DNA from: a plasmid
Direction: 5' to 3' (one strand)
Length of the DNA: 64,000 nt
Sequence record: NZ_CP072340.1
Made by a program: the position numbers and the translations under genes. Within the stretch, counting starts at the first letter, position 1. Every line of letters starts with the position of its first letter. Below are positions 1,907 through 46,096 of this stretch, one piece after another. Under the pieces are notes generated by a model, which did not search any database, had not been told where the DNA came from, and saw only the letters and a list, made by a program, of their open reading frames with translations.

Positions 1907-2282
1907 AGCCGAAGAAGAGCTTCATAAAGATGTAAATATTTTCCGCAAGCGTATCTAACGCATGACAGCCTTATTATCAACACATTGTAAAACCTATTGT
2001 TTTATGTTCCAAAAGAGCCGCTTTTGATGTGTAACTAATCAACGAAAATGAAGAAAAGTAGAAGTTGGCGTAAACTAACTGATAATGAGTGAGAAATGGA
2101 ACGATTTGCATAGAGGTGCTCTTTTCAAAAAGGGTAGGAATATGCAGATTTAGGCAAAAGTTCAGTTACCAAAGCATTACCTGATTTTGGGATAGGTAAC
2201 GATGGAGTAATGTCCGGTAACCGAATTATTTTCGCTCGTGTGGCTGTTGCTGTGGTCGGCAGTTTTCTGCATAAGTGAGGAA

Positions 2283-2323
2283 CGCTTTAATTCGGGTAAC
2301 TTTGCCCATAAAAATTAAAGCGT
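2283..2323 (+). promoter_or_regulatory. Candidate promoter/operator of intC1: 11-bp inverted repeat acgctttaatt...aattaaagcgt bracketing a TAacTTTG -7 box
   Basis: Read directly from the sequence. The Bacteroidetes -7 consensus TAnnTTTG lies about 25 nt upstream of the ATG at 2324, and the inverted-repeat arms flank it. Confidence 0.4.
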
Positions 2324-3553
2324 ATGAAACAAGAGAAAATGAAGGTGTTGCTCTACCTCAAAAAGAGCGGTCTTGACAAGTCGGGCAAGGCTCCGATTAT
2401 GGGACGTATCACACTTGGAAGGAATGTTGCCCAGTTCAGTTGTAAACTCTCCTGCAATCCAGAGTTGTGGAATCCCCGTGAGAGTAGAGTGGACGGCAAG
2501 AGTCGTGAGGCAGTAGAGATAAACGGCAGGTTGGAGAGTTTGCTGTTGTCTGTTCAGTCGGCTTATCAAGCCTTACTTTCCAAAGGTTGCCCATTTGACG
2601 CAACCGATGTAAAGGAACTGTTTCAAGGCAGCGTACAGACACGATGTATGCTTATCGAACGATTGGACATCCTCATCAGGGAGAAGAAAGAACATATTGG
2701 AATTGACATTAAGAGAGAAACAATTTCCAATTACTATACTACCCGTAATAATCTTAGGACATTTATCGAAGACAAGTACAAGGTGGAAGATTTGTCTTTC
2801 TCGCAACTTACAGAAAATTTCATTTATGATTTCAGGGACTACTACTTGAACAAATTAGGGTTTCAGGAAAGTAGTTTCTATGCAGTTGCATCCCAAATAA
2901 AGACCGTATGCAGGTTGGCATACCGTGAAGGATTGGCTGACACCTTATTATTTGCTAATGTAAAGATAGCAAGAGGTGATAAGAAACTCCCAAAGGCACT
3001 TGACAGACGTTCACTTGACAAACTAATGAATACCCACTTCGGAGAGTTGGAGGAAGAAATGGAAACAGCAAGGGATTTGTTTGTTTTTGCCTGTCATACA
3101 GGTGCAGCCTATTGTGATTTAATGGGATTAAGTAAGACACATCTTGTCCGTGATGATGAGGAAAATCTTTGGATGAAGTTCAATAGGCAGAAGACAGGTG
3201 TACTTTGCCGTATTAAGTTGTTGCCCGAAGCGATTAGGATAATAGAGAAGTATCGAAGCGAAGAAAGGGAAACGCTGCTGCCACAGATGAAGTATGCCAC
3301 CTATCAATCGTATCTTAAAGCATTGCGCCTTAGAGTGGGCATTGCCTTTCCCTTTACCACGCATACGGCAAGGCACACCTTTGCTACGCTCATCACGCTT
3401 GAGCAAGGAGTTCCGATTGAAACTGTGAGCAAGATGCTCGGACATAGCAACGTAAGTATGACCGAGCGTTATGCAAAGGTTACACCCCAAAAACTCTTTG
3501 AGGAGTTTAATCGTTTTCTTTCTTTCACGGAGGATATGCAGATGAGTATTTAG
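2324..3553 (+). CDS. Tyrosine recombinase / integrase (first of a tandem pair)
   Basis: C-terminal catalytic region ...TARHTFATLITLEQGVPIETVSKMLGHSNVSMTERYAKV carries the R..H..R..Y motifs of the phage-integrase family. The N-terminus, MKQEKMKVLLYLKKSG...PIMGRITLG, is the arm-binding type seen in Bacteroidales integrases. Confidence 0.9.
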   Translation: MKQEKMKVLLYLKKSGLDKSGKAPIMGRITLGRNVAQFSCKLSCNPELWNPRESRVDGKSREAVEINGRLESLLLSVQSAYQALLSKGCPFDATDVKELFQGSVQTRCMLIERLDILIREKKEHIGIDIKRETISNYYTTRNNLRTFIEDKYKVEDLSFSQLTENFIYDFRDYYLNKLGFQESSFYAVASQIKTVCRLAYREGLADTLLFANVKIARGDKKLPKALDRRSLDKLMNTHFGELEEEMETARDLFVFACHTGAAYCDLMGLSKTHLVRDDEENLWMKFNRQKTGVLCRIKLLPEAIRIIEKYRSEERETLLPQMKYATYQSYLKALRLRVGIAFPFTTHTARHTFATLITLEQGVPIETVSKMLGHSNVSMTERYAKVTPQKLFEEFNRFLSFTEDMQMSI

Positions 3554-3581
3554 CAATAGACATATTAAAACTAAAATCATT

Positions 3582-4859
3582 ATGAGAAGTACATTCAAGA
3601 TACTGTTCTATATCAACAGACAGAAAACTAAGGCAGACGGCAATACCGCCATTCTCTGCCGTATCACCATAGACGGAAAGAACACAGCCATTACCACAGG
3701 CGAAGAGTGCCAGCCTGCCGAGTGGAACTCCAAACAGGGTTTGACAACCAATAGGAAGACCAACCAAAGAATCAATGAGTTCAGGGAATTGGTAGAAAAA
3801 ACCTATCGGGACATACTGACGAGGGACGGAGTGGTAAGTGTGGAACTTATCAAGAACAGTTTGCAAGGCATTGCCACTAACCCCACCACGCTCCTTGCAA
3901 TGAGCAAAGCGGAACTGCAAGCCGTCAAGGAAAGCGTTGGAAAGTCAAGGGCAGAGGGGACTTATCTGAACCTTTACTATTCTGATAAAAATCTCCGAGA
4001 TTTTATCGAAAACAAAGGAGTACAAGACATATCTATCGTCACCATTACGGAGAGTTTGTTCGAGGAATACCGTTTCTTCCTAAAAAAGCGTGGGCTGAAA
4101 GCATCGACTGTCAATACCAATCTCAGTTGGCTGAGCCGACTGATGTTTCGTGCGGTGAGCAGCAGGATTATCCGCTGCAATTCCTTTGAGAACGCCAAGT
4201 ATGAGAAGGAGGAAAAGAAGATACGCTTCTTGCAAAAGGGCGATGTAATGAAACTTATGGCAATGACGATGAACGACAGAGAATCGGAATTGGCACGGCT
4301 GATGTTCGTCTTCTCCTGCTTCACAGGTATGGCTATCGCTGATATGGAAAATTTGGAATACAGGCATATCCAAACGGCAGCGGATGGGCGGAAGTATATC
4401 CGCAAGGAGCGTCAGAAGACAAAGGTTGAGTTTGTCGTACCATTGCACCCGATAGCAGAGGCTATTATCCGCCATTGTCTGGAAGAGCAGAAAGGGAATG
4501 AAGAACAGCAGACGGTGAAAGAAAAAGGTAAAAAACATATCTTTCCCCGTGAGTGCAGCCGGAGCGTGATAGACGGCAGACTGAGTATTGTTGGCAAGGC
4601 TTGCGGTATCAGACAGAGATTGTCGTACCATGTTGCAAGGCATACCTTCGGTACGATGAGCCTAAGTGCAGGAATACCTATTGAGAGTATAGCCAAGATG
4701 ATGGGGCACGCTTCCATATCAAGCACGCAGATTTATGCGCAGGTAACGGACAACAAGATTTCGGAGGATATGGACAGGCTTATTGCCAAACAATCGGCAA
4801 AGGATAAAGAAACTATGGAGAGAGAGGTTTGTGAACCAAACTCTGCTAACTCGTTGTAA
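3582..4859 (+). CDS. Tyrosine recombinase / integrase (second of the tandem pair)
   Basis: ...HVARHTFGTMSLSAGIPIESIAKMMGHASISSTQIYAQV catalytic motif. The N-terminus MRSTFKILFYINRQK...RITIDG is homologous to intA2 and intB2. Confidence 0.9.
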   Translation: MRSTFKILFYINRQKTKADGNTAILCRITIDGKNTAITTGEECQPAEWNSKQGLTTNRKTNQRINEFRELVEKTYRDILTRDGVVSVELIKNSLQGIATNPTTLLAMSKAELQAVKESVGKSRAEGTYLNLYYSDKNLRDFIENKGVQDISIVTITESLFEEYRFFLKKRGLKASTVNTNLSWLSRLMFRAVSSRIIRCNSFENAKYEKEEKKIRFLQKGDVMKLMAMTMNDRESELARLMFVFSCFTGMAIADMENLEYRHIQTAADGRKYIRKERQKTKVEFVVPLHPIAEAIIRHCLEEQKGNEEQQTVKEKGKKHIFPRECSRSVIDGRLSIVGKACGIRQRLSYHVARHTFGTMSLSAGIPIESIAKMMGHASISSTQIYAQVTDNKISEDMDRLIAKQSAKDKETMEREVCEPNSANSL

Positions 4860-5055
4860 TTAAATGTCCTATCAATTTTGACAAATCAGTAGTGTAGCAT
4901 TTTTGTAGCAGTATTTTGACCGCCTAATGACTACCATTCTGACTACCTTATGAAAGCACAACTGCTCTCTTTTCTTGAGTACAAAGGTATATAAAATTGT
5001 ACTAACCTCCAAATCTTTGTGCCATAAATATTTAGAAATTTTACTGCTACACTTT

Positions 5056-5107
5056 CCAGTGCAAGGTGCAAGCCCCTATATATAAGGGGACTTGCACCTT
5101 GCACTGG
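5056..5107 (+). terminator. Near-perfect 21-bp-stem hairpin (ccagtgcaaggtgcaagcccc / tatatataa / ggggacttgcaccttgcactgg) downstream of intC2
   Basis: Read directly from the sequence. One bulged base; the following tract is moderately T-rich (gattttctcaaaattatttgattttg). It could be a terminator or a protein-binding palindrome. Confidence 0.4.
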
Positions 5108-5323
5108 AGGGATTTTCTCAAAATTATTTGATTTTGTTCTGGAATGATTGTTCTTACAATGTATTTCCGTTTATGAATTATAGAAAACAAACCAATTAAA
5201 TCATCCCATGCCGACATCGCTCATCATATTCATCTGCACCTAATGCAAGCCACCTTGCATGGGGTGTAAACATTTGAATGTAGCGGGTTGCTCAAATTTA
5301 GGTGTCTTTGTAACTTTATACAT

Positions 5324-5659
5324 ATGAAACAGTTGCACAAAACCCTAAAGGAAAAGCGAGAGCTTGAAGGTTACTCACAAGAGTATGTCGCTGGAAAACT
5401 GAATGTTAGCTCAAGTACCATTTCACGATGGGAAACTGGAGCTGTGTCGATGACCACCTCACAAACTTACAGTTATGCCAAGGTATTGGGATGGGATGAA
5501 CTCGACCTGCTTGCATCTATTGCACAAAGACAACAGGCAAGACCGCTTCCACTCGCTCAGATGAGTATCGAAGTGTTTGACAAGGAATCCTACGACAGAA
5601 TTATAGATCTTGTAAAGGAGCTTGGGCCGCAACACATTATTTTACAAACCAAATTATAA
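5324..5659 (+). CDS. XRE-family helix-turn-helix transcriptional regulator
   Basis: LKEKRELEGYSQEYVAGKLNVSSSTISRWETG is a canonical XRE/Cro-C1 HTH. The start was moved to the ATG at 5324 (MKQLHK...) from the TTG at 5288 in the ORF track. Confidence 0.7.
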   Translation: MKQLHKTLKEKRELEGYSQEYVAGKLNVSSSTISRWETGAVSMTTSQTYSYAKVLGWDELDLLASIAQRQQARPLPLAQMSIEVFDKESYDRIIDLVKELGPQHIILQTKL

Positions 5660-5665
5660 AGGCTG

Positions 5666-6046
5666 ATGGAAATAATCGCAGTAGAAAGCCAAGCCTATCA
5701 GGAACTGATAGACAGGCTCAACCGAATAGAGCGGTATGTTGAGCGCACTTCTCATCTTATCCAAGATATAGATGACGAGCTGGAGATGACAACCAAAGAT
5801 CTTATCGGGACTCTGAATGTTTCAGAGTCCACCCTTTATCGCTGGCGCAAGAAACAGTTGGTACGGTATCGCTACACGGAGGGTGGCGATGTACGCTACT
5901 TCTTCAAGTCTATCGTGATAGCCACGAAATGTAACCGACTCCGTGTCTCAGGCATGAGAAACGACGAGGTTCTTGGTCGGCTCAACCGTTTTAAGGACAA
6001 TCTCATCATAAGTTCATGTCTTAATCCTAAAAACCGACAACTATGA
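5666..6046 (+). CDS. HTH_17 / excisionase-family DNA-binding protein (Xis-like)
   Basis: TKDLIGTLNVSESTLYRWRKKQL matches the MerR-like HTH_17 motif found in Bacteroidales Xis-like small proteins. Its stop overlaps the start of the primase gene. Confidence 0.55.
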   Translation: MEIIAVESQAYQELIDRLNRIERYVERTSHLIQDIDDELEMTTKDLIGTLNVSESTLYRWRKKQLVRYRYTEGGDVRYFFKSIVIATKCNRLRVSGMRNDEVLGRLNRFKDNLIISSCLNPKNRQL

Positions 6047-8103
6047 TAGAAAAGGAACAGATTCTTTTGCTTACACAGGGAGGTCTGAATGTGTTTTCCC
6101 ATTTCCTCGGCTTTGAGGTAAACCTTCATCGCAACTTCCGAAGCCCCTTCTATGACGACAGACGGGCTTCCTGCCATATCTACTACGACAGGAAAACTTC
6201 TTCTTACAAATTCTATGATCATGGCGATACCACCTATTCAGGGGATTGCTTCTGGTTTGTGGCAACCCTCCGTAACTTGAACCTGAAAACAAGTTTTCCC
6301 GAAGTCTTGGAAACTATTGTACAAGAACTTGGATTGTATTCTTTATGTGATGGTGAAAAGCATAGCAACCATATCACGTTATCATATAAAAGAACTATCG
6401 TTCCCACTCCTAAGGCTGATATAACCAAGTGTACGGAAGAACGTCCATACAGTTTTGAGATACAGCCTTTTGACGATGGACTGATGAACTATTGGGCGCA
6501 TTATGGTATCCATGAAGATACACTTCGGCTTTTTCGTGTACGGAGTCTTAAACGGTATGATAGCGTATCAGCCGAAGGTAAGAAGTTTGAGCTTCACAGT
6601 TCGCCGACAGAACCGATATTCGCCTATATTGGAAATGGCTATGTCAAGATATATCGCCCTCACAGTCCGAAAATCCGCTTTCTCTATGGCGGGCGGATGC
6701 CTATGACCTATTGTTTCGGCATGGAGCAGATTCCCACCAAAGGAGATATGCTCTTCATTACAGGTGGGGAAAAAGATGTGCTCTCGTTGTATGCGCACGG
6801 GTTCAATGCAATCTGCTTCAACAGTGAAACGGCACAAATACCGGAAAGCATCATAGAGAGCCTTCAACTTCGCTTTCGGCATATCATTCTCTTGTATGAT
6901 GCAGATGAGACGGGTGTACGGGAAGCGCATAGACAAGCTGAACATTTGGCAGAATACAAGGTATTGAATCTTACACTCCCACTTAGTGGAACCAAGGCGG
7001 AAAAGGACATTTCTGATTTCTTTGCCTTAGGCAACGGGGCGAAGGAACTGAAAGAACTGCTTGCCAAGATGTTTACAGACCTATATAGCCAAACCATGAT
7101 GATGCTTCGCTCCTGTGAGATTGACTACGACAATCCACCGGATATTTCCAAGACTGTGGTGGCTGTGAATGGTGTCCCTTTGGGAACGCAGGACAATCTG
7201 TTCTGCATTACCGGAGGTGAGGGTACGGGCAAGAGCAACTATGTAGGAGCCATCCTTGCCGGAGCTTTGGGGAATAAACGGCTGCCGATAGAGAAAACCT
7301 TGGGATTGGAGATTACCGCCAATCCCAAAGACTTGGCAGTCCTACATTATGACACAGAACAGTCCGAGGCTCAACTGCACAAGAATCTGGGCAAGACATT
7401 GCGCCGGGCTTCATTGACGGCAGTACCGAAGTTTTACCATTCACTCTACCTTGCCTCACTCTCTCGTAAGGACCGCTTGAAACTTATCCGTGAAAGTATG
7501 GACTTGTTCCATCACAAGCATGGTGGAATACACCTCGTTGTCATTGATGGTATTGCTGATCTGATACGTTCTGCGAACGATGAAACGGAAAGTATAGCCA
7601 TTGTTGACGAACTTTACCGCTTGGCAGGGATATACAATACTTGTATTATCTGCGTATTGCACTTCGTGCCGAACGGCATCAAACTTCGGGGACATATCGG
7701 CTCGGAACTTCAACGTAAGGCGGCGGGTATCCTTTCCATAGAGAAAGACGACAATCCCGAATACTCGGTCGTAAAGGCGTTGAAAGTGCGTGACGGAAGT
7801 CCGTTGGACGTACCGATGATGCTTTTCGGCTGGGACAAGGAAGAAGACATGCACGTCTATCGTGGTGAGAAGTCCAAGGAGGACAAGGAAAAACGCAAAA
7901 CCGATGAGCTTATTGGCGTTGTCAAAGAAGCCTTCCGAAATTCTTTCAAGCTCACTTACCAAGAACTTTGTGAGGTTCTGATGCGAGAGATGGAAATCAA
8001 GGACAGGACCGCAAAGAAATATATTGCCTATATGAAAGAGCAGCGTATTTTGATACAAGATACAAGTGGGAATTATCAAAAAGGAGAATTATGCCATACT
8101 TAG
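6043..8103 (+). CDS. Primase-helicase fusion (N-terminal zinc-binding/Toprim primase region plus C-terminal P-loop NTPase)
   Basis: The N-terminus has a C...H...C/H cluster ([17 protein letters not shown]...KFYDHGD) and a Toprim-like acidic patch ([10 protein letters not shown]). The C-terminal half has Walker [17 protein letters not shown] and Walker [12 protein letters not shown]. This resembles the primases of Bacteroides mobilizable elements. Confidence 0.7.
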
Positions 8104-8399
8104 ATCAACAGCCAGAAGATACATGGCAGAAACGCCTGTTTGATAAACTGAAGAATATGGAAGACAAGCTCGACCGTCTGCTTGTCCTACGGGAACAAGA
8201 AGTAGATACGACCATTCACCCTCCATTGAAACCCGAATACTTGGATATCATAGATGTCTCCAAAATTTTGAAGGTGGAACAAAAGACCATTTACAACTGG
8301 GTTTGGGCTGGAAAAATTCCTTATCTTAAAGCCAATGGCAGATTACTTTTCCTTCGGAAAGAGATAGATGAAATGCTACGGAAACAAGGGAACTGGTAG
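8091..8399 (+). CDS. HTH_17 / excisionase-family DNA-binding protein
   Basis: [40 protein letters not shown] is the excisionase-type HTH_17 signature. The gene overlaps the primase stop by 13 nt. Confidence 0.6.
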
Positions 8400-8404
8400 G
8401 CACC

Positions 8405-8459
8405 CGTTCATTATTTAATGCTTGTTCAATTTTGTTGAACAAGCATTAAATAATGAACG
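8405..8459. promoter_or_regulatory. 55-bp perfect palindrome (25-bp arms, 5-nt spacer): cgttcattatttaatgcttgttcaa ttttg ttgaacaagcattaaataatgaacg
   Basis: Read directly from the sequence. There is no clean U-tract on either side for a simple terminator. The arms contain the half-site TTGTTCAA/TTGAACAA that recurs downstream. Confidence 0.85.
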
Positions 8460-8480
8460 AAAAAATTTGCAGTTTGATTT

Positions 8481-8537
8481 TTGTTCACTATCTTTGCAGT
8501 GTTCAATCCTATTGAACGACTATAAATATTGAACAAG
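8481..8537 (+). promoter_or_regulatory. Candidate promoter/operator of the cargo cassette: TAtcTTTG -7 box (8489-8496) plus three more TTGTTCA/TTGAACAA half-sites (8481, 8501-8517 palindrome gttcaatcctattgaac, 8529)
   Basis: Read directly from the sequence. The last half-site ends 3 nt before the ATG at 8540. Confidence 0.45.
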
Positions 8538-8539
8538 AT

Positions 8540-9541
8540 ATGTACGGAATACAGATTATAGATCAGGCGGTTAGTGCGATAAGGAGACAGTGGGAGGATT
8601 CTCAAGATGTCATAATCGATGCGCTTCAGCCGGAAACGCCTTCGATGGAACAATACGTCAGAATTATGGGCATAGAGTTCCGATGCCTTGTTGAAAATGA
8701 GATAAATGGAACAAATATCCTGCGCATTGAAGAAAAATCAAAGAGCTGTATGGGGACCTACAAGGGACCTGTCATATTGGTTGCAAGATATGTACAGCCA
8801 TCTGTCTATGGAACTTTGCGTAAAATGGAACTTAACTTTGCTGACACGGCAGGTAACTACAATATACAGTACACGAAGGGCAGGAAAGTGATATTCCACC
8901 TTTCTCACACAGGGGAGAAAGTCCCTGTGAATAACAACAAAAACTATCCTATATTCCAAGAAGCAGGCCTGAAGGTAATCTTTTATCTCTTGCAAGCTCC
9001 TGAGAATGTGGGCAAATCTTTTCGGGAAATCAAGGAGTATAGTGGAGTTTCGATAGGTACTGTCAAAAATGTGATTGATGAATTGGAAGTCCGTAAGTTT
9101 ATTCTCGTAACTCAGAAGAAAAGAGTTCTGAAAAAACGTCGTCTTTTGCTTGATTTATGGTCGGAAAACTATCGTCAGATATTAAAGCCCAAGTTGCTGT
9201 TGAAGCAGCTGGATTTTCGCACACCGGAACAAAAAGAAAAATGGGAAGAAATAGCATTGCCAAATGGTATGTTATGGGGTGGAGAGTGTGCATCTAATTT
9301 ATTGAATGGTTACCTTACTCCGGAACTTTTTGAACTCTATACAGAGACACCTTTCTCCAATCTGATGAAGACCGGCGCAACACGGACTACCGAAGGAGTT
9401 ATTTATATATATCAGAAGTTTTGGAAAGGCGATGTAATGCCCTGCATTTTGATATATGCCGATTTAGTAAGTAGCGGAGACAGCCGTTGTATTGAAGCTG
9501 CAAATAAATTATTAAAAGATGAACTTTCAGATTTCGAGTAA
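8540..9541 (+). CDS. Winged-helix DNA-binding protein, possible AbiEi/MenA-like antitoxin-regulator (family assignment uncertain)
   Basis: 333 aa with an internal wHTH-like segment (SFREIKEYSGVSIGTVKNVIDELEVRKFILV). It sits directly upstream of, and overlaps by 23 nt, a pol-beta nucleotidyltransferase gene. The upstream palindromic operator is consistent with autoregulation. I recognised no catalytic motifs. Confidence 0.4.
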   Translation: MYGIQIIDQAVSAIRRQWEDSQDVIIDALQPETPSMEQYVRIMGIEFRCLVENEINGTNILRIEEKSKSCMGTYKGPVILVARYVQPSVYGTLRKMELNFADTAGNYNIQYTKGRKVIFHLSHTGEKVPVNNNKNYPIFQEAGLKVIFYLLQAPENVGKSFREIKEYSGVSIGTVKNVIDELEVRKFILVTQKKRVLKKRRLLLDLWSENYRQILKPKLLLKQLDFRTPEQKEKWEEIALPNGMLWGGECASNLLNGYLTPELFELYTETPFSNLMKTGATRTTEGVIYIYQKFWKGDVMPCILIYADLVSSGDSRCIEAANKLLKDELSDFE

Positions 9542-37066: not shown

Positions 37067-37211
37067 ATTCTAAATTTAAGAATTAAGACTGTCTGTTATA
37101 TAAAAATCCTCCGTATTTATATTCTGCCCATGCAAACAAGCTGTGATCCTGACGGAACTAAGGCATGCCGCATGGACAGAATGTCAACTGTCTGTTACAG
37201 GCGTACTACCG

Positions 37212-38501
37212 TCAAATGACGACTTTATATGATTTCCCGTCAATGGAAACAACATAAATACCGTTTGACGTCAGGTTCAAAACGAAATTCCGTGAAGTAA
37301 CAATATGGTCGGTAACTTTCTTTCCGTCCGTTGAATAAATACATACCGTCGCGCCTATCGGTGCATCTATTATCGTTATTTTTCTGTCTGACGCTTTGAT
37401 TTCCATCTTGCCGTTAGACACACCGCCGAGTCCTGTGCCGATGTTCACATCGAAACTGTTCTTGGCATTTACCGACACATTGCCGTCAGCTGAGATTACC
37501 GTACCCTCGGGGATCACGATACTGCAGCCTTTTTCGGGGACTCTCAACCCACTGAAATCACAGGAAACAATCCATCGGCCCCACCTGCCATCCTCATCTT
37601 CGGACAGCGTGGGCGTGACCTCCTTGATCAGTTTGTTGTCGGTGTCGAACAATTGAATTTTGGGGTCTGACGAAAGCATGACGGCCTGCCTGTAGTAAAA
37701 GCGCACCTCGCCGAGCACGTCAATGCCGTGATTGTCAAAGAGGCTACACCATACATAGGTTATCGGCTCTATCGGCTTTGTATATCCACCGATGAAATCC
37801 ACTCTCGTCTCTTCGTTGGTGATGTCCGTGCGAAATCTGGGGCTCAGACTACCTTCTGGCATTACGAGAGAATAGTGGACGCCTTTCTCAAAATTCATCT
37901 TCATCCCGAAGTCGGCATACGCCTGCCCCAGGTTCCAGTCCCAGCCCACATGCGCATCGAATGTCCTTACGGGCACTCCCTCGCGGTACAGGGTCATGGT
38001 GGGGCTGCCCACAGGCTCAGTCTCGGTCCCATAGTAGAACCAGATATGCTCTTCGGTTTCTACCGAAGAACCGTTTTCCACCGAGCACTCAGTACTTATG
38101 ATCTTTTCGGGGACTTCAAAATCAAATTTCAGGTCTCCATTTTTTACGTCGGGCGCGCTCTTCAGGAAGATTGCCCCCGCCGGAATTTCCAACTTGTAGG
38201 ACTTGCCCTTGGGAAGGACAAGTTTTTCAAAGGTAACAAGTGCGATGCCTTTCTCCATATAAGTATCGGAGGTAATCACACCGGTTGCCATTGTCTTGTC
38301 TCCGCAGGTTATGGTCGCCTTGGCGTCTTTGGATATGTCAACATGAGCCGTAAATTCCATGTGAACCTGATTTATAGGCTCATAGACAAGCTTATTCTCA
38401 ATGCTGCACTCCTGAGGTACTAAGGTTGCAACCTCGTTGGCGTAAGCGGATATTGCGGACATGCAGAGCCCGACAATACCGAGGAATAAATGCTTTTTCA
38501 T
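37212..38501 (-). CDS. Secreted protein with candidate T9SS C-terminal sorting domain (function unknown)
   Basis: Signal peptide MKKHLFLGIVGLCMSAISAYA (start moved to the internal ATG at 38501). C-terminus ...SNGIYVVSIDGKSYKVVI is T9SS-CTD-like. Confidence 0.45.
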   Translation of the reverse strand: MKKHLFLGIVGLCMSAISAYANEVATLVPQECSIENKLVYEPINQVHMEFTAHVDISKDAKATITCGDKTMATGVITSDTYMEKGIALVTFEKLVLPKGKSYKLEIPAGAIFLKSAPDVKNGDLKFDFEVPEKIISTECSVENGSSVETEEHIWFYYGTETEPVGSPTMTLYREGVPVRTFDAHVGWDWNLGQAYADFGMKMNFEKGVHYSLVMPEGSLSPRFRTDITNEETRVDFIGGYTKPIEPITYVWCSLFDNHGIDVLGEVRFYYRQAVMLSSDPKIQLFDTDNKLIKEVTPTLSEDEDGRWGRWIVSCDFSGLRVPEKGCSIVIPEGTVISADGNVSVNAKNSFDVNIGTGLGGVSNGKMEIKASDRKITIIDAPIGATVCIYSTDGKKVTDHIVTSRNFVLNLTSNGIYVVSIDGKSYKVVI

Positions 38502-38582
38502 ATTAAGCTCCTTTCTTTGAATTAATTTATTAATATTAAGGTCTGAACTACCGTATGGGGAAGTCTGCAAAAGACCGTAAAA

Positions 38583-40073
38583 TCAGCGACGGGGTGTATT
38601 GACAACGGCTTTATAGGCATCTATCAACCCATAGCCGTAATGTTCGTTCCAGCTTCCGAATGCCTTGTTGGTGTCGTATGCGTATGTCCCGATTTTCTTC
38701 GCATTCTTTGCGATGATTTCCCTAACTTTATAAGCAGAAAGTTGGGGATTGCGTTCAAGTATCAAGGCAGCCAATCCTGCCACGTGCGGAGCCGCCATGG
38801 ACGTTCCTCCCATATATGTAACTGCATTTCCGGGTACTGTTGACAGAATATAAGTGCCCGGAGCCGTAACGAACATGTTCGACCCGTAGGCAGAGGTTGT
38901 CGAAAGCGTCCCGTCCTGTTTCATATTTGCAACAGCTATCACTTCCGGACGATAGTCTCCGGGGAAGGAGATAGGACCGCTTGTATTGCCTGCCGACTTC
39001 ACAAACACGCATCCTCGACCTTCTCGACCTCTTGACAGAGCCAAGTCGATTGCCTCCTTGACTATATCCTTATCGGAACACCACCATGAGCAAGAGATGA
39101 TATCCGCACCATGCTGCCAAGCCCAATTTATTCCATTCGCCAGATTGCTTTCCAATTCAGTTGAACCAGACAGGGTGTTGCTGACAGACATTAAGGTGGC
39201 ATCCGGGGCTACTCCTGCCACCTGTATCCCGTTATTCCTTACAGCTGCTGCAATTCCTGCACAATGTGTACCATGGGCACCGTAAACCTTGCTGGGAGAG
39301 CTTTTTGTTTCCGTATCATAACTCAAACTGCTGATATTGTCAGCCAGATCCTGATGGGCAAGATCTATGCCTTGATCGACAATGGCAATCGTGATGCCGC
39401 GCCCTGTTGAGTATCCCCATGCCCGGCTGACAGAAATATCCATCCCTTCATATGTCGAGTTGTACAGTCCCCATTGATTGAGGACGTTCGGATCATAGGA
39501 AATTTCAAGGGCATCGAAAGAGAAGCCCGGCGAGGAAGATGCAAACTTTCCGGATTCATATATCGAGTTTGCCACCACTACTGCATCTCTTCCAGAGGTT
39601 TCCGATAACCTCAGGCTATACCATAGTGGCATAAAGGGATTCTGCCCTATAATTTCACAGTCGTATTGTCTTGCAGTACTTTGCAGAGCCGGATAATCTT
39701 TTTCCGATTTCAGCTTTACATCGATATATCCTGTCGGGATAAGTTCCTTTCCGTCCTCAGTTACGAAGCAAGACTGTATGGAGACAGGATTGGAGACTGA
39801 AGCGTATGCAAGCGATTTGACTGTTTGGGCTGTCATAGAAGACCTAACCTTATAAACTTCTATTTTGCTTCTGCTGTCTGAAATATTCTTTTCAAATTGC
39901 AGATTACAATTGTTGACACTCGCATTGCCGGCGAGAGGGGAGATTACTACAATTTTGGAAGCATTTTCCGTCAGAGGAATCCGTTTCCCATCATAATAAT
40001 AAAATGCATCCTGAGCATAGGACACTATATTCACAGCCAATGCGAACAAAAGAAATATGATTGTCTTTTTCAT
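38583..40073 (-). CDS. Secreted S8-family subtilisin-like serine peptidase (paralog of 35543..37066)
   Basis: GAHGTHCAGIAAAV, GTSMAAPHVAGLAALI, DQGIDLAH. N-terminus MKKTIIFLLFALAVNIVSYAQDAFYYYDGKRIPLTEN parallels the other subtilase. Confidence 0.9.
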   Translation of the reverse strand: MKKTIIFLLFALAVNIVSYAQDAFYYYDGKRIPLTENASKIVVISPLAGNASVNNCNLQFEKNISDSRSKIEVYKVRSSMTAQTVKSLAYASVSNPVSIQSCFVTEDGKELIPTGYIDVKLKSEKDYPALQSTARQYDCEIIGQNPFMPLWYSLRLSETSGRDAVVVANSIYESGKFASSSPGFSFDALEISYDPNVLNQWGLYNSTYEGMDISVSRAWGYSTGRGITIAIVDQGIDLAHQDLADNISSLSYDTETKSSPSKVYGAHGTHCAGIAAAVRNNGIQVAGVAPDATLMSVSNTLSGSTELESNLANGINWAWQHGADIISCSWWCSDKDIVKEAIDLALSRGREGRGCVFVKSAGNTSGPISFPGDYRPEVIAVANMKQDGTLSTTSAYGSNMFVTAPGTYILSTVPGNAVTYMGGTSMAAPHVAGLAALILERNPQLSAYKVREIIAKNAKKIGTYAYDTNKAFGSWNEHYGYGLIDAYKAVVNTPRR

Positions 40074-40081
40074 TGCAAATA

Positions 40082-41011
40082 CTATTTAATGATTATTTTC
40101 TGTGTATAAATTGATTTGCCCTTCTTTGTCAAAGTGCAAATATATATGCCTTTTGAAAATTGAGGCACATCGATGTTCTTTGCCGTCACGGACGAGGAGA
40201 GAACTTTCTGTCCGTATATATTGAGAATGTCAATGTGGTCGCAGTTCGCTATGGAACTCAACTCTATCGAGCCGTTATGGTATGCCATACGGATAGTCTG
40301 CTTGTATTCAATATCGTCAATACCGGTTTCTTTGAGATTGATGACGGGACGAATGGGAAGACCGATTGTTCTCTTGCTAGATCTTCTGCCAACACTGCCT
40401 GAATCGTAATCTATATCTTTGGCTTTCGTTATAAGATCATCAGGATCTCCTTCTGCTCTATGAAGCGTTCCGGTCCAACAATATCCTTTCCAATTCTGGT
40501 TACGATATGTTGTCCCTTGATATGTAGCAGCGTATCCGGCAGCAGGAAGAAACAGGGTGTTTTCATTTGCACCATAATGGAAGCGTCTGCCCCAAATGCC
40601 GTCCACTTCCTCCCATTTATTCCAGCAGAGTCTCACGAGTTCCCCTACCTCCTCAAAAGTAGGCAGGCGCCATCGTCCGCCCCATTTTACCCTTGCTGCA
40701 TCGTATTCCGTCCCGCAGATATTTTCTCCGATATTCGTGCATAACGTGTAATAGGCAACTCCGGGAATCTCCTTGTATCCTTCAAAGAATTTGTAATTCT
40801 CATTAGTATATTCCTCTTTAGGCTCTGTCTCTCCCCATGCAAAGTAGTCTCCGAAATCTATGGAAGACTCAGCGCCGATGTTGCAGGTTGCCCACAGGGT
40901 ACCGCTGGGCAATCCCATGTCCACATACTCATGACCGTCTATGACGTTTGTCTGCGCATGGGAAACAGAAACGAGTAGGATGCTTAATATGGATGTAAAA
41001 AGAAATCTCAT
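40082..41011 (-). CDS. FISUMP-like (Fibrobacter succinogenes major paralogous) domain protein with T9SS C-terminal sorting domain
   Basis: PSGTLWATCNIGA...YFAWGE...GGRWRLPTFEEVGELV resembles the FISUMP W/CP-GWRLPT-EE signature. C-terminus ...FSKGIYICTLTKKGKSIYTQKIIIK. Signal peptide present. Confidence 0.5.
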   Translation of the reverse strand: MRFLFTSILSILLVSVSHAQTNVIDGHEYVDMGLPSGTLWATCNIGAESSIDFGDYFAWGETEPKEEYTNENYKFFEGYKEIPGVAYYTLCTNIGENICGTEYDAARVKWGGRWRLPTFEEVGELVRLCWNKWEEVDGIWGRRFHYGANENTLFLPAAGYAATYQGTTYRNQNWKGYCWTGTLHRAEGDPDDLITKAKDIDYDSGSVGRRSSKRTIGLPIRPVINLKETGIDDIEYKQTIRMAYHNGSIELSSIANCDHIDILNIYGQKVLSSSVTAKNIDVPQFSKGIYICTLTKKGKSIYTQKIIIK

Positions 41012-41078
41012 ATCATATGAATTTTATAAGGAGTAGGTTCAGGCTGAAATTAGCCAATCCTACTCCTTGGTCTATGAT

Positions 41079-42686
41079 TTACTTGACGAAAATCTTTTTC
41101 GTTTCCATACCATTCTCATATGTGACTGAGAAAGCGTAAACACCGCCGTTCTTTATGTTTAGAGAATTCAAAGCGAGTGTGACGGAAAAGGCATTCACTT
41201 TTACCGAACTTAGTTTGACACCGGACATGTCATACACTTCCAATTTGCTCATCTTCCTTCCTGATGAAATCGTTATGTCTGAAATTAGAACAGCAGGACA
41301 CGGGGTAATGGAAAGTTGAGAGTCCCGTTCAATCTTTGAAACGTCTGTTGTGCCGTTCTGCTTTGCCTGTGCGGGAGCAAGGAAGGCGGACACATTCGCA
41401 TCATTGCTTACACGGGCAAGAATATTGCAAGCCGATTCTGGCTTGAATGAACTGTAATTAGATACATGTATGCCCGTCGTTTCAACAAAGTATCTCTGAC
41501 TGATGTATGAATCCCTATTGCTTAGGTTATATTGGTTGAGCTTTGCATAAGGACCATCATCGTTAAATCCGACCACATTTTCTGCATCATTTCCTTCAAT
41601 GAAGAGCATGGGATCGTCAGTGCCGGGAGTATTGCAATTCGTCATAGTCGCATACTCGTGACCGTCTGCCGGTATTTCACACTTACAATTCGAAAAATAT
41701 ATCGGAGCGTTCTCATAGAAGTAATTGCCATTGACATTCAAGTCCGCCACACTCAGCACTCCATTGCCAGCACTCCGTAGTTTTATCAGATACATTCCTG
41801 TTTTCGGTATCGTGACTTTCAGTGTTGCGATTTGATTATTAGGGTTATTCAGAGCCTTTTCTGAGAGATGTCCCCAATTGAGCCCCTGCATCTCTTCCGA
41901 TGTAGCAGGAGTGTAAAAAAATCGTGGTTTCATATCTCCAATTGGAATTGTGGGGAAAAGACCCTCTTGAGGGGAATTAGCGGGGAAAAGTATTTGTTTC
42001 CCATAATAGACCATATCTATTTTATGAGCTATTCTACTTGTGGAAGTTATAAAAATCTCTTGACCTTTCGTGAAAGAGAATGTCCGATAGAAAGAATATT
42101 TCAACGGCACATGTGTAAAATACTTAATGCCCGCAGCATCACGTGAATCACTTTCCGTCATTTCCGCCATGCTTACATCTGGAGTGCCATCTGATGAGAC
42201 GGCTTTTCGCAGGTATGAGTTAAAACCGGCGGACTGAAATCTCGTTGCCATCATGTTCCGTGATATTTTGACGGACTCTACGTTTGGCACTTCGGGGGCA
42301 TTGGTTGCAATTGATATTGTGTTAATGCCGTTTTTAAGTTGCAGGGCAGGTTTCGCTTCAACGGAAGCAGACTGCCAGTTCCCAACGGTTGGCTTAACCG
42401 AACCGGAAAGCGTGCCGTTCACATACACCTTGAATGTGGTGAATTTCCCGTTGGCATACCTTGTCGGCTGAAGCCAAAAATTAACGTAATAATCACCTGC
42501 TTCAAATGCCTGAACCTCAAAGTTTTTGTAATTTAGCACATTGTCTGTCGTTTCATACATACTTTTGATCTCTAAAACATTGTTTGAAGTCAAAGGTTTG
42601 CTCTCATTTCTCTGTGCATTTGCATGTTGTACAGGAAAAGTCGTTGTTAATGCACAGAATACTGTCATGAATAAAATTTTTCTCAT
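41079..42686 (-). CDS. Secreted protein with candidate T9SS C-terminal sorting domain (function unknown)
   Basis: Signal peptide MRKILFMTVFCALTTTFPVQHANA; C-terminus ...NGGVYAFSVTYENGMETKKIFVK. Confidence 0.45.
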   Translation of the reverse strand: MRKILFMTVFCALTTTFPVQHANAQRNESKPLTSNNVLEIKSMYETTDNVLNYKNFEVQAFEAGDYYVNFWLQPTRYANGKFTTFKVYVNGTLSGSVKPTVGNWQSASVEAKPALQLKNGINTISIATNAPEVPNVESVKISRNMMATRFQSAGFNSYLRKAVSSDGTPDVSMAEMTESDSRDAAGIKYFTHVPLKYSFYRTFSFTKGQEIFITSTSRIAHKIDMVYYGKQILFPANSPQEGLFPTIPIGDMKPRFFYTPATSEEMQGLNWGHLSEKALNNPNNQIATLKVTIPKTGMYLIKLRSAGNGVLSVADLNVNGNYFYENAPIYFSNCKCEIPADGHEYATMTNCNTPGTDDPMLFIEGNDAENVVGFNDDGPYAKLNQYNLSNRDSYISQRYFVETTGIHVSNYSSFKPESACNILARVSNDANVSAFLAPAQAKQNGTTDVSKIERDSQLSITPCPAVLISDITISSGRKMSKLEVYDMSGVKLSSVKVNAFSVTLALNSLNIKNGGVYAFSVTYENGMETKKIFVK

Positions 42687-42929
42687 GTCTTAAAACTTTT
42701 ATTATTAATAACTTGCCTATATTCCCTTTTATGGGATACTGACAATTTCATATCATTCAAAATGATAGATTGTACAGAAATTTTGCTGTCAACAAATATG
42801 AATAAATTTGTAACAGATAAAAATTATTTTGCTTTTATTTATGCTTTGGATGAAATTGATTATTATTTTGTTCTCTTTTGTTTTTTACAAACTCCTTGCA
42901 AGGGACTTCATAAATACAGAGGCTAACTA

Positions 42930-44066
42930 TCATACAGATAGAAGCACTGTTCCATACGAGAACCTTCCACTCTCCGGTACAAGAAGAAGTATCTTGTTTC
43001 CACGTTTAATTTCTTTTGTCCTTATGAGCTCTTCCAGTGCCACATAAATGGCAGCCGAACCGATGTTGCCTACAGAAGTAAGGTTTGTAAACCACTTCTC
43101 TTTTGTCAGAGCAATGTTACGAGCAGCAATTTCGTCATTTAACTTCTCATAGAAAAACATTGATGATACATGAGGTATAATATAGTCTATCTCATCTGCT
43201 TTTATATGATGTTTGGCAAGTATGGTTTCGATATGGTCAACCCAATACTTAATAATGTGCTTCTTTAATTGCCGTATGTCCTGTTTGCCCACAAGTACGG
43301 CACGCTCCTTAATCTCATCAGGAGAGAACTCCTTCCAGCTTTTGAGCCGTCCGTTTTCTTGCAACTCCGATGCCATAAACATACAGGTAGGTAGTTCGTT
43401 GGCATAGGAAGTCATATCGACCCATTCGATTTTGAGTGGGCATGTTCCTTCGGGATGATCTTGCACCAATACCGCTCCTGCACCATCAGAAAGCATAAAC
43501 CGCATAAAATCCTTCTCAAAAGCCATATAAGGGTCTTTGTCAGGATTGTCATGTGTAGCTTCATACTCCGGGTCATAAAATTTGGATACCAATGCAGGTG
43601 AGGTTAATTCTGATGCCACGCATACAGCTTTTTGATGCAGTCCTGCAAGAATATTGCTATAGCATATTTTCAATGCCTGCAATGAGGTAAGGCATACACC
43701 TGCAGAGGAAAATATTTCCATAGGATAGTTGGCTAATTCTCCATGAACCATAGACGCATGGGAAGGAAGCAATTGGTCGGGTGTGCTTGTCCCACAAGCC
43801 AATAATGTCAGGTCATTTGGAATTTGTCTATTCTCAAACAGCCCACATACGGCTTCTTTTGCCAATTCTGCATTCGAGTGTGTTAGGCTTTGGGTTTTGT
43901 CCAACCCGTAATATCTCGTTTTGATGCCATTTTGTCTAAGGACAATGGAACGAACCCTTGACGGATTTCCACCAATTTTCCCAATATAGTCCTCCATATC
44001 CTCATTGACGATGGGAGAATTAGGAAGATATGCCGATACGCTATTGATATATACTGCTTTTTCCAT
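42930..44066 (-). CDS. KAS III (FabH)-like / thiolase-fold condensing enzyme
   Basis: 378 aa; candidate active-site Cys in SSAGVCLTSLQAL; FabH-like length and layout. Confidence 0.6.
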   Translation of the reverse strand: MEKAVYINSVSAYLPNSPIVNEDMEDYIGKIGGNPSRVRSIVLRQNGIKTRYYGLDKTQSLTHSNAELAKEAVCGLFENRQIPNDLTLLACGTSTPDQLLPSHASMVHGELANYPMEIFSSAGVCLTSLQALKICYSNILAGLHQKAVCVASELTSPALVSKFYDPEYEATHDNPDKDPYMAFEKDFMRFMLSDGAGAVLVQDHPEGTCPLKIEWVDMTSYANELPTCMFMASELQENGRLKSWKEFSPDEIKERAVLVGKQDIRQLKKHIIKYWVDHIETILAKHHIKADEIDYIIPHVSSMFFYEKLNDEIAARNIALTKEKWFTNLTSVGNIGSAAIYVALEELIRTKEIKRGNKILLLVPESGRFSYGTVLLSV

Positions 44067-44073
44067 AGGAATA

Positions 44074-44700
44074 TTATTTGGTTATTAAATAGTATATTGT
44101 GTATATTTGCTCTTTCAATTCGGAAATGGAAAGTTGGCTGCTCAATGCACTTCTGTATGACAATCCAAGATATATATTTCTAATGGAAGATATAATCTTT
44201 TCTGTTTCCACAGTTTGAGTAATCTCTCCTTTCTGTTTGGCAAGCTCTATCACCTCTTTCCACTCAAGGCTCTTTCTTTTCTCGTATTCTTGAAACTTCT
44301 CTTTCCAATCCGGATAGTTGTCTTTCAGATACAAGATAAATGACATGAAATTGGCAGGAGTGACTGTGCCTTTTGTCATTATAAAAAATGATTTCATACG
44401 GCGACCGATGTTTTCTACACGATTATCAATGAAGTCCTTTAATGGTGTCGAGCTTGTAAGTTCAAGAAAGTCTGTAGCATCATTTGTCAAGAATTCAAAT
44501 ACAAACCTATCAACGGCATGACTGAATATATCCTCCTTATTCTTGAAGTGATGAAACATATTGCCACGAGAAATGCCGGTCGCTTCCACTAAATCCGAAA
44601 ATGATACTGCTGCATAACCTTTTTTCAGAAACAGCCTGAACGATTCATTAAGGATAATGTCCCTTTTGCTTATGCTTTCTTTAACTATTTGTTTTTCCAT
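44074..44700 (-). CDS. TetR-family transcriptional regulator
   Basis: N-terminal HTH RDIILNESFRLFLKKGYAAVSFSDLVEATGISRGNMFHHFKNKEDIF; start moved to MEKQIV.. (44700). Confidence 0.8.
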   Translation of the reverse strand: MEKQIVKESISKRDIILNESFRLFLKKGYAAVSFSDLVEATGISRGNMFHHFKNKEDIFSHAVDRFVFEFLTNDATDFLELTSSTPLKDFIDNRVENIGRRMKSFFIMTKGTVTPANFMSFILYLKDNYPDWKEKFQEYEKRKSLEWKEVIELAKQKGEITQTVETEKIISSIRNIYLGLSYRSALSSQLSISELKEQIYTIYYLITK

Positions 44701-44996
44701 TATTTCATACTTGCTAAATTCAAAACAGAACGTTTGTTCCGTGCTTATAAGTGCAATATTATGCAAATTATTTCAATCCGCCAAATATTTCGGGGGATTT
44801 TTCTTCAAAAAGTTTCATTTCTCTCTTTTTTTTTCATTTTACAATAGAAAAATAGTTGTTTCTATTCATTTTTGCTGATTAGGCAATAAGGCTAAAAAAT
44901 CCTGACAAATTACCTCCATTAAAATTAGTTGGTAATGATTTTAAGTGCTCCTACAAATTATTTCCGTAAAAACACACTGCTTTCATCAGAAAATAT

Positions 44997-45004
44997 TATC
45001 TTTG
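44997..45004 (+). promoter_or_regulatory. TAtcTTTG -7 box about 150 bp inside the right end of element B, reading outward
   Basis: Read directly from the sequence; conserved with 23956-23963. Confidence 0.3.
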
Positions 45005-45136
45005 CACTATCAATTTAAGTGTTCTTTGGGGCGTTGTAGAATAAAGAAGGGAAAAGAAACTCGCTCGTTTCCAACTCGTAACCCATTTATCCTTTATTCA
45101 TCCTTATTCTATTGATTATCTGAAAGATACAAAATT

Positions 45137-46096
45137 CTAAAATCTTTTGCGGGGATAGGTCGTGATTTTCTTCTCATAGAGGCTCTGGGCAATCGAGAGG
45201 GTCTTGTCTGCTGAAAAGCCGTGGCGTCTGTTGGCTTCTTTCTGCAAGGCAGTAAGGTCGTACAAGAGTGGTGGTACGGTATGTCCCACCTGTTTTGCGA
45301 CCGACTCTACTTTAAGCCGGCTCTGACTGCGGAGCGCAGCGAGAGCTGTCTGTGCCGATGCTTTATCCTCATAGTCTTCACAGCCAACGGCTTTCAGCGA
45401 CACGCCCTCTTTCTCCATCAGGGCGGAGAGTTTCCAATAAGGCACGGAAGAAAAATCACGGTTCTCTATGTATCGACGGCAGACCATAGCGAGGGTTGGA
45501 GTCTGTACCCGTCCCAACGAATAGCCTCCCCTGCGGGCAATGGAAAGGGCACGGCTCGCATTGATTCCCACGAGCCAGTCGGCTTCGCTTCTTGCCTTGG
45601 CGGAATAATAGAGACTGTCGTAATGGCTTCCGGCCTTGAGATTAGAAAGCCCCTCACGGATAGCTCTGTCCGTGAGTGAAGAAATCCAAAGGCGGTCGAA
45701 GGGTTTTCGGCAATTGAGATAGGAATAGATGTATCTGAAGATAAGCTCACCCTCCCGACCTGCATCGGTAGCAACGATGATGCGGTCAACCTTGTCAAAG
45801 CAGGATCGTATCACCTTGAGCTGCTTGAGTGCTGCTGGGTCGGATATATAGTCCTTATCCTTACGTACTTGTCGTACCACTAACTGAAAAGGATTGGGAC
45901 GGATGGGTAGATCTTCAGCTTTGTAGGCAGAAAAACCATAGGTTTCGGGCATGGCAAGGGCGATGAGGTGTCCCATTGCCCAAGTAACGAGATAACCGCA
46001 ACCTTCCAAGCATCCGTCCTGCTTACTGTTTGCTCCGACAATGCGGGCAATGTCTCTGGCTACCGAGGGCTTCTCGGCAATAATACAAGTTGTCAT
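45137..46096 (-). pseudogene. topB: 5' portion of the DNA topoisomerase III gene (Toprim N-terminus; truncated at the catalytic Tyr: ...KKITTYPR then element-derived KRF*)
   Basis: MTTCIIAEKPSVARDIARIVGA... is a Topo IA Toprim start. It ends inside the conserved (S/T)YPRT active-site motif. The last approx 13 nt plus the stop codon lie in the element B end. Confidence 0.85.

Follow-up and report, generated by a model that had tools for sequence, protein, structure and literature searches.

Tandem-integrase elements nested in a probable CTnPi2/3-type conjugative transposon of Prevotella

The window analysed in this study (64,000 nucleotides of plasmid DNA, one strand of record NZ_CP072340.1) contains three pairs of adjacent tyrosine-recombinase genes, int1 and int2, which an original prediction, made from the letters alone, had assigned to three sibling elements designated C, A and B. 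As shown in Table 1, all three pairs are real, and they are accompanied by a split methylase/SNF2-helicase gene, a split topoisomerase III gene and the mobilization and transfer genes of a conjugative transposon (CTn). Domain content was taken from the open reading frame (ORF) listing and from domain scans (Pfam; TIGR03783 for TraG). We consider it likely that the window represents the left 59 kb of a Prevotella CTn of the CTnPi2/3 type, which itself carries A and B as riders and is integrated in an element of the MTnPi1-3 type. Relative to the window, the arrangement is that of a single CTn, two nested riders and a third element serving as the landing site, and not of three neighbours. The original prediction overlooked the single-CTn nature of the whole region, as well as the seats of A and B in the helicase and topoisomerase genes. 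The window contains no tRNA genes, and a tRNA target is therefore ruled out here for all of these elements.

Elements A and B and the genes they interrupt

Translation of the DNA flanking A revealed helicase sequence on both sides (...LIATDYARK on one flank, TDYARKMSLDL... on the other), and deletion of A in silico between its cores produced a single helicase ORF of 2,091 amino acids (aa), in which 11076-12662 is joined in frame to 24120-28808. The flanks of B encode parts of a topoisomerase (...LYEKKITTYPR and YPRTGSRYISED...). Removal of B gave a single ORF of 694 aa, which aligns from residue 5 to 585 with E. coli Topo III straight over the junction, with the insertion lying at ITYPR, which we take to be the Topo III motif holding the catalytic tyrosine. 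The elements are bordered by repeats of 9-12 bp, exact in B (9 bp; core written (G)CGGGGATAG) and imperfect in A (core pattern GCGGGC-RTAATC, GCGGGCRTAATC), and the similarity between A and B ends at these cores. Left ends at ~12772 (A) and ~30159 (B), where strong A/B similarity starts, were rejected, as flank translation put the true ends ~110 bp further left in both elements.

A and B are sibling integrative elements built on one chassis, with differing cargo. They share the gene order attL, int1, int2, DUF1896, two HTH_17 genes, DUF3408 (A only), candidate oriT, MobA-like gene, cargo and attR. DUF3408 and mobA had been ascribed to both, and indeed A has both genes, whereas no DUF3408 gene was found in B. 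The predicted identity of about 85% in the conserved module proved too high: in a self-comparison of the window, the integrase/HTH module (12717-17234 and 30104-34609) is 73% identical at the DNA level, and higher values are confined to the mobA block (87%) and the 174-bp right end (86%). The integrases are 71% identical at the protein level, both int1 and int2. The HTH_17 genes do follow the integrase pairs of A and B, as predicted, and are probably Xis-like. Each element contains the 10-mer TCGTAACCCA three times (two copies, oppositely oriented, at the left end and a single copy at the right end); these repeats are candidate arm sites.

The left end of A (12663-12668) provides an in-frame ATG (the reverse complement of CAGTCATTAAG is TTA ATG ACT G..), so that the C-terminal helicase fragment begins Met-Thr-Asp-Tyr-Ala-Arg-Lys. 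This ATG is retained by most, though not all, A-type relatives, and the split helicase might still be produced as two polypeptides. In the cargo of A, the 58-aa ORF with a double-glycine (GG) leader gave a weak, sub-threshold match to a lantibiotic family.

Relatives were collected by searching species-representative genomes once with an alignment of A and B int2, which returned 79 loci (numbered with the prefix L) in Bacteroidota genera. A-type pairs (90-97% identical) were present in at least seven genera of Bacteroidales: Prevotella, Hoylesella, Segatella, Hallella, Alloprevotella, Porphyromonas and Phocaeicola. The A-type element abuts the identical helicase codon in 29 of the 36 loci with flanking DNA (pairs 91-97% identical), and in seven of these 29 the helicase itself is only 58-64% identical. 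The other seven of the 36 lie at different sites, where the flanking ORFs appear to be chromosomal, as judged without a domain search. B-type elements occupy the topoisomerase site of the window in L043 and L044, and another site in L053. Complete relatives carry exact end repeats (GCGGGCATAAT in L038, GCGGGGATAG in L053), and L049 retains an intact helicase copy with the unoccupied site CATCTT TCTGGCGTAGTC TGTTGCGAT. The shared sites, the diverged helicases, the other sites, the exact repeats and the empty site together suggest repeated site-selective insertion and not a fixed backbone module.

Reuse of the chassis with further cargo, as had been predicted, is evident from these relatives. 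Tet(Q) is encoded by two A-type elements that interrupt CTn helicase genes, in Porphyromonas uenonis and in a Prevotella metagenome-assembled genome (L036, 7859-9832, and L037, 13773-15746; the Tet(Q) model, with a cut-off of 1425, gave 1519 bits). Other elements contain AbiE toxin-antitoxin genes, a UvrD-like helicase with an ADP-ribosylglycohydrolase (L038), BspA-type leucine-rich repeat proteins and proteins with type IX secretion system (T9SS) tails (L053), or insertion sequences and RibB (L019). The KAS III gene of B has counterparts in A-type elements from other species, the proteins being 92-99% identical, which indicates that cargo has been exchanged between the A and B clades.

Two relatives displayed unusual arrangements. 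In Hoylesella timonensis (L044, 5-2462), a fourth clade of the tandem pair, 35-38% identical to A/B and in the opposite orientation, abuts a CTn helicase gene cut at about residue 1497, unlike the site of A; the topoisomerase gene next to it in this CTn carries the B-type element. In Alloprevotella sp. Lung230 (L018, 8776-16278), an A-type series of int1, int2, DUF1896, two HTH_17 genes and DUF3408 runs straight into mobA, relaxase and coupling-protein genes that are 91%, 79% and 95% identical to those of the window CTn. Recombination between the inverted mobA/oriT copies of rider and CTn, resulting in an inversion, would explain this order.

The C integrase pair and the left end of the conjugative transposon

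"Element C", drawn by the original prediction from 2.0 to 11.0 kb, is a chimera, in which the integrase pair (2,024-4,827) derives from a mobilizable transposon of the MTnPi1-3 type and everything from 4,828 rightward belongs to the CTn. Bases 4803-4841 (39 bp) match exactly the published attL of CTnPi2-a (GATAAAGAAACTAT GGAGAGAGAGG TTTGTGAACCAAAC). In Prevotella intermedia OMA14 this attL occupies the 3' end of an integrase gene that belongs to an MTnPi-like element in a degraded state (Naito et al. 2016, PMC4755523). The CTn end at 4817-4827 lies inside the 3' end of C int2, so the primase-helicase and the nucleotidyltransferase (NTase)/PP2C genes, formerly counted as cargo of C, are those of the host CTn. 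The cargo gene calls themselves were right in all three regions (AbiEi/AbiEii with PP2C; the C39 exporter locus; subtilase, T9SS, KAS III and TetR genes).

Unoccupied versions of this site were found in L073 and L080, where the int2 end is uninterrupted (GGAGAGAGAGG CTTTTGAACTTTTG) and equal to the published right flank (PMC4755523). The identical CTn end stands beside other flanks in L005 and L017, and it was also present in L010; a CTnPi2-type right end (TGAAGCCTATTAGC GGAGAGAGAGG) with an inward-facing integrase start was detected in L028.

At the other side of the C pair, the reverse complement of 2024-2048, TTTTCGTTGATTAG TTAC ACATC AA AAGCGGCTCTTTTG, agrees with the published MTnPi1/3 attR pattern. 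Similarity starts at this end among the 16 C-type loci aligned there, the DNA to the left being unrelated, and a comparison of the window with 30 related C-type loci showed similarity from near 2030 to near 4810, the int2 end. Relatives of C int1 (47-99% identical) are located upstream of int2 in L056-L083. The remainder of the MTnPi1-3-type element would have to lie past the window: a search for its second end (GATAATNNTNAAAA, TTATCTTNNNNNGYAA) across the window gave only chance-level matches and no such end near 11 kb. The sole exact match, at 58402, lacks the att pattern and was rejected.

Short arrays of ~20-bp units, (T/G)(G/C)(T/A)AAA(A/G)-N6-TTTT(A/G), border the MTnPi-type end on its outer side in many species. 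The window carries GTAAAACCTATTGTTTTAT and CCAAAAGAGCCGCTTTTGA at 1975-2030, similar arrays precede the C-type left ends (~8380-8450) in L056, L060, L062, L070, L073, L081 and L083, and the published MTnPi1-3 att sites are flanked by matching motifs (AAAACCTATTGTTTT, AAAAGCGGCTGTTTT). The joint between two such units seems to create the TTAC-N5-AA target.

The CTn contains a mobilization and transfer gene set of the Bacteroidota type (TraG, ParA-like TraA, relaxase, coupling protein and MobC_2). Since its tra operon is unfinished at base 64000, it must be longer than the 59.7-kb CTnPi2. In many loci the segment 4817-8383 is conserved beside the helicase gene, whereas 8383-11287 is variable. 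The left arm includes two near-perfect palindromes of 54-55 bp (5055-5108 and 8405-8459; 89-91% self-complementary), located upstream of the HTH_3 gene and after the HTH_17 gene, respectively. Very long ORFs overlap on opposite strands at 49354-52062, one of 883 aa (plus strand, the one called in the draft assembly) and one of 833 aa (minus strand), both lacking Pfam matches. A CTnPi2-type right end (AAGCCTATTAGC GGAGAGAGAGG; L028, ~580-640) or an inward-facing integrase gene by the GGAGAGAGAGG core (L005, ~820-2205) precedes a segment homologous to the left arm, which suggests that CTns of the CTnPi2 type may stack in tandem at one shared core. Exact-protein look-ups with the DUF4099 protein, A int2 and C int2 returned only draft contigs of GCA_000336235.1 and two read sets, or nothing, and no new contexts.

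Table 1. Features of the window and predicted junctions (positions refer to the 64,000-nucleotide window)
Feature	Position	Strand	Remarks
MTnPi1-3-type integrase-proximal end	2024-2048	+	11-bp att TTGATGTGTAA (reverse complement TTAC ACATC AA), then element end CTAATCAACGAAAA
C int1	2324-3553	+	tyrosine recombinase, 409 aa; Pfam domains
C int2	3582-4859	+	tyrosine recombinase, 425 aa; Pfam domains; last ~11 codons replaced by CTn end
CTn attL core GGAGAGAGAGG	4817-4827	+	CTnPi2-type; CTn begins here and extends beyond base 64000
CTn left arm	4828-10989	+	Pfam
HTH_3 gene	5288-5659	+	CTn left arm
HTH gene	5666-6046	+	CTn left arm
Primase-helicase	6043-8103	+	CTn left arm
HTH_17 gene	8091-8399	+	CTn left arm
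AbiEi	8540-9541	+	CTn left arm
AbiEii	9519-10373	+	CTn left arm
PP2C	10330-10989	+	CTn left arm
Methylase/SNF2-helicase gene, C-terminal fragment	11076-12662	-	Helicase_C domain
A attL core CCTCGCATAATC	12651-12662	+	
Element A	12663-24119	+	11,457 bp; in CTn methylase/SNF2-helicase gene
A int1	12959-14179	+	
A int2	14184-15452	+	
A DUF1896	15505-15972		
A HTH_17 genes	16652-16921 and 16925-17239		
A DUF3408	17227-17733		
A oriT-like block	17828-17920		
A MobA-like gene	17944-18369		
A cargo	18386-23756		161-aa ORF, C39-peptidase ABC exporter, outer-membrane barrel, GG-leader peptide
A GG-leader peptide	23580-23756	-	58 aa; MKALALEVFSKDEMGFINGG/GDVTATK...; beside C39 ABC exporter
A attR core ACGGGCGTAATC	24108-24119	+	
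Methylase/SNF2-helicase gene, N-terminal fragment	24120-28808	-	N6_Mtase, DUF2958 and SNF2 domains; ORF continues to stop at 24075 within A
Topoisomerase III gene, C-terminal fragment	28902-30048	-	Topoisom_bac profile positions 208-409 and Toprim_Crpt
B attL core CGGGGATAG	30040-30048	+	
Element B	30049-45158	+	15,110 bp; in CTn topoisomerase III gene
B int1	30347-31567	+	
B int2	31571-32833	+	
B DUF1896	32855-33325		
B HTH_17 genes	34018-34296 and 34300-34614		
B oriT-like block	34810-34903		
B MobA-like gene	34926-35354		
B cargo	35543-44766		two subtilases, DUF6383, two T9SS-tail proteins, KAS III, TetR
B attR core CGGGGATAG	45150-45158	+	
Topoisomerase III gene, N-terminal fragment	45159-46096	-	Toprim and Topoisom_bac positions 3-163; ORF continues to stop at 45137 within B
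CTn backbone segment	46117-56333	-	except 883-aa ORF
DUF4099/DUF3945 protein	46117-47520	-	CTn backbone
LuxR-type protein	47714-48733	-	CTn backbone
883-aa protein	49411-52062	+	CTn backbone
Coupling protein	52550-54553	-	CTn backbone
Relaxase	54637-55917	-	CTn backbone
MobA (MobC_2)	55914-56333	-	CTn backbone
Candidate oriT of CTn	56340-56432	-	84% identity to blocks upstream of A/B mobA
tra operon	56893-64000	+	continues beyond window
ParA-like TraA	56893-57684	+	
TraG CTn ATPase	60213-62726	+	TIGR03783, 1601 bits
Predicted CTn circle junction			TGAAGCCTATTAGC-GGAGAGAGAGG-TTTGTGAACC
Predicted restored helicase site			CATCTT-CCTCGCGTAATC-CGTTGCG
Predicted restored topoisomerase site			CTGTA-CGGGGATAG-GTCGTG
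Predicted A attP junction			...GAATCTTTT-RCGGGCATAATC-AGTCATTAAGAAT...
Predicted B attP junction			...AATCTTTTG-CGGGGATAG-TTTATAGAAT...

The integrase pairs, mobilization and competing explanations

All six recombinases are full-length proteins with the Arm-DNA-bind_5, Phage_int_SAM_5 and Phage_integrase domains, i.e. with an IntDOT-type build. Six positions are invariant among them (R250, K290, H347, R350, H374 and Y383 in the numbering of C int1) and can be read as the R-K-H-R-H-Y catalytic set. The proposed homology of the int1 proteins with one another, and likewise of the int2 proteins, holds: pairwise scores are 197-221 and 225 bits within a position, versus 147-193 bits across int1 and int2. 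The duplication must thus predate the split between C and A/B. Long N-terminal extensions of A and B int1 were dismissed as ORF-calling artefacts (the gene as called in the source assembly encodes 406 aa). The genes are separated by only 4 bp in A and 3 bp in B, and in all related loci with upstream DNA int2 is immediately preceded by int1. The ratio of nonsynonymous to synonymous substitution rates (dN/dS) is 0.075 for int1 and 0.066 for int2 (231 pairs, 22 loci).

Both A and B encode a MobC_2 (MobA-like) protein, and domain scans detected no relaxase, primase or coupling-protein domains in either element. Immediately ahead of mobA, A and B contain a non-coding block of 93 bp whose identity to the corresponding block of the CTn is 84%, while the adjoining DNA farther upstream is only ~40% identical. 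This block probably represents an oriT common to A, B and the CTn. A review of integrative mobilizable elements (IMEs) describes a type with an oriT and an accessory factor that recruits a foreign relaxase (Guedon et al. 2017, PMC5704250), and A and B would fit this type.

The CTn is integrated through the core GGAGAGAGAGG into the MTnPi1-3-type element, at the 3' end of its second integrase gene, and A and B are inserted in the CTn, in the methylase/SNF2-helicase gene and in the topoisomerase III gene at the catalytic-tyrosine codon, respectively. We propose that integration takes place by site-selective tyrosine recombination at the short cores. The two integrases would cooperate as a hetero-oligomer, much as XerC/XerD or TnpA/TnpB of Tn554 do. 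The relaxase-free elements could then move in cis inside the CTn or, after excision, on its relaxase, coupling protein and pore by means of the look-alike oriT and MobA.

Three independent siblings lying side by side, with C extending over 2.0-11.0 kb and owning a primase-helicase and NTase/PP2C genes, seem to us very improbable. A homologous int1-int2 pair followed by HTH genes does open all three regions, a primase-helicase is often found near C-type pairs (L010, L030), and a primase-family gene is also present in the published MTnPi elements (PMC4755523). However, this explanation cannot accommodate the exact CTnPi2 attL, the end of C-type similarity at ~4810, the occurrence of the segment from 4817 on behind other flanks (L005, L017, L029) and the failure to find an MTnPi-type second end near 11 kb. 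The predicted siblings are therefore A and B, with defined ends, and not C. It is also unlikely that A and B belong, as fixed modules, to the backbone of the CTn lineage, with integrases that serve the CTn or nothing. Such modules would agree with the helicase fragment adjoining A in 29 of the 36 loci, with the 2016 paper, whose authors detected no att site ahead of the internal CTnPi2/3 integrases (PMC4755523), and with the lack of circular junctions in metagenome and viral contigs, but they would hardly be expected to restore both host genes exactly upon removal, to have complete relatives with exact repeats at different sites that appear to be chromosomal (L038, L053), to reside in helicases only 58% identical, to be missing from the intact helicase of L049 or to keep both integrases under strong purifying selection.

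With regard to the pair itself, it is possible, if rather doubtful, that only one integrase recombines DNA and that its partner is a regulator, a directionality factor, a resolvase or an enzyme for a second target site. The pair is co-conserved with no sequence sign of interaction, the sites occupied by A-type elements are of different kinds (helicase and chromosomal), and the arm- and core-binding domains are equally diverged in both proteins, all of which is compatible with this view. On the other hand, both proteins have the same three-domain build, the full apparent catalytic set including the tyrosine, and equal dN/dS, and the MTnPi1-c copy, from which the downstream integrase gene is absent, does not excise (sequence drift in the remaining integrase is the alternative cause given by its authors; PMC4755523). 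Together with the co-occurrence and short gaps, these features argue for a hetero-oligomeric recombinase as the best reading; a split of roles between the two proteins, e.g. integration versus excision or two target types, is possible. That int2 is a decaying paralog, a weakness named along with the original prediction, is extremely improbable. Broken int2 copies do occur (A-type in L047, L048, L051 and L052; C-type in L070 and L081), but int1 is broken about as often (L011, L019, L040); among A-type loci, 31 of 37 int1 and 37 of 43 int2 genes are intact, and the dN/dS of int2 does not exceed that of int1.

Several points weigh against the nested arrangement and the hetero-oligomer favoured here. 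The right end of the CTn and its own integrase fall outside the window. The two cores of A differ (CCTCGCATAATC versus ACGGGCGTAATC), so we infer its crossover point. Joint inheritance with the CTn, instead of repeated insertion, may account in part for the helicase association in 29 of 36 loci. No attP junctions or excised circles of A or B were found in metagenome and viral contigs, although assemblies rarely hold such junctions. A domain-by-domain comparison of A and B identity revealed no asymmetry between int1 and int2 by which half-sites could be assigned, and we infer the interaction of the two proteins, as well as the need for both genes, from sequence.

A more far-reaching proposal, which we put forward tentatively and regard as less than probable, is that A/B-type elements are dedicated riders of this CTn lineage. 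They would home into the SNF2 helicase-methylase gene and the catalytic-tyrosine codon of topoisomerase III, and carry copies of oriT and MobA so that the CTn relaxase serves them; precise rider excision would restore the host genes and gate CTn functions, and the integrase pair would work only as a hetero-oligomer, forming a natural counterpart of XerC/D in the IntDOT family.

Comparison with known systems

Two recombinases per element are unusual in general, as had been remarked, but for Prevotella they have already been published. MTnPi1, MTnPi2 and MTnPi3 of P. intermedia OMA14 are mobilizable transposons with tandem integrases, whose excision was detected by PCR (PMC4755523), and they have been listed as 'Tyr duo' IMEs (PMC5704250). 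These two papers were the only ones that turned up in the literature on tandem tyrosine integrases in Bacteroidota. The elements of the window resemble MTnPi1-3 in (i) the tandem tyrosine-recombinase genes at one end, (ii) their Prevotella hosts and (iii) similar accessory genes (ABC transporter components, a subtilase-like protease, LuxR). The 11-bp att TTAC/TTGC-N5-AA with the end TTTTC..TGATTAG is shared only by the C pair. In contrast, A and B have sequence-specific cores (GCGGGCRTAATC, GCGGGGATAG; CGGGGATAG in the B element of the window), integrases only ~30% identical to the C/MTnPi-type pair, seats inside CTn genes, and none of the relaxase and primase genes reported for MTnPi.

The host CTn shares with CTnPi2 and CTnPi3 an identical attL, a target in the integrase-gene 3' end of an MTnPi-like element, internal integrase genes, and ABC-transporter and TonB-type receptor cargo. 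The authors describing CTnPi2/3 had already guessed that these contain MTn-like insertions, and found no att sites for the internal integrases (PMC4755523); the present analysis defines where the internal elements end, their cores and the host genes that they split.

In Firmicutes, elements of the Tn5252 superfamily harbour one to three IMEs each, inserted in SNF2 helicase, Maff2 or traG genes by a single serine recombinase (PMC5704250). Like A and B, these are small mobilizable elements located site-specifically within conserved genes of a conjugative element able to transport or mobilize them, one target being an SNF2-type helicase, but A and B employ a pair of tyrosine recombinases and have Bacteroidota hosts. 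The resemblance is convergent and does not indicate membership.

Tn554, with the adjacently encoded TnpA and TnpB, and XerC/XerD use two different tyrosine recombinases, both required for one reaction. Tn554 has a third gene, tnpC, and Xer acts on dif under FtsK control. The integrases of A, B and C differ from these enzymes in carrying IntDOT-type N-terminal arm-binding domains, and the likeness serves as a working analogy. CTnDOT and its integrase IntDOT are similar in the combination of Arm-DNA-bind_5, SAM-like and catalytic domains, and in the operon of mobA, relaxase and coupling-protein genes divergent from traA-Q. In CTnDOT, Exc is topoisomerase-III-like, and Xis2c and Xis2d are small proteins. 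The host element has a topoisomerase-III-like gene, as in Exc, and the small HTH proteins could act like Xis2c/Xis2d. Unlike the elements of the window, CTnDOT uses one integrase and a core that needs GTANNTTTGC. The recombinase-in-trio elements differ in having three recombinases per element instead of two; the third gene of A and B is DUF1896.

The A-type chassis, which carries tet(Q) in some species, is a marker of practical use for following resistance and bacteriocin cargo among oral and vaginal Bacteroidales, and the nested, gene-targeting riders provide a tidy system for probing a two-integrase mechanism. Given its strict co-conservation and equal constraint, the pair is suited to testing whether IntDOT-type integrases act as hetero-oligomers. 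Tandem integrases of Prevotella and the internal integrase genes of CTnPi2/3 have been known since 2016 (PMC4755523), whereas the att cores of the internal elements, the host genes split by them, their relaxase-free module of a putative oriT plus MobA, and the breadth of their distribution are new.

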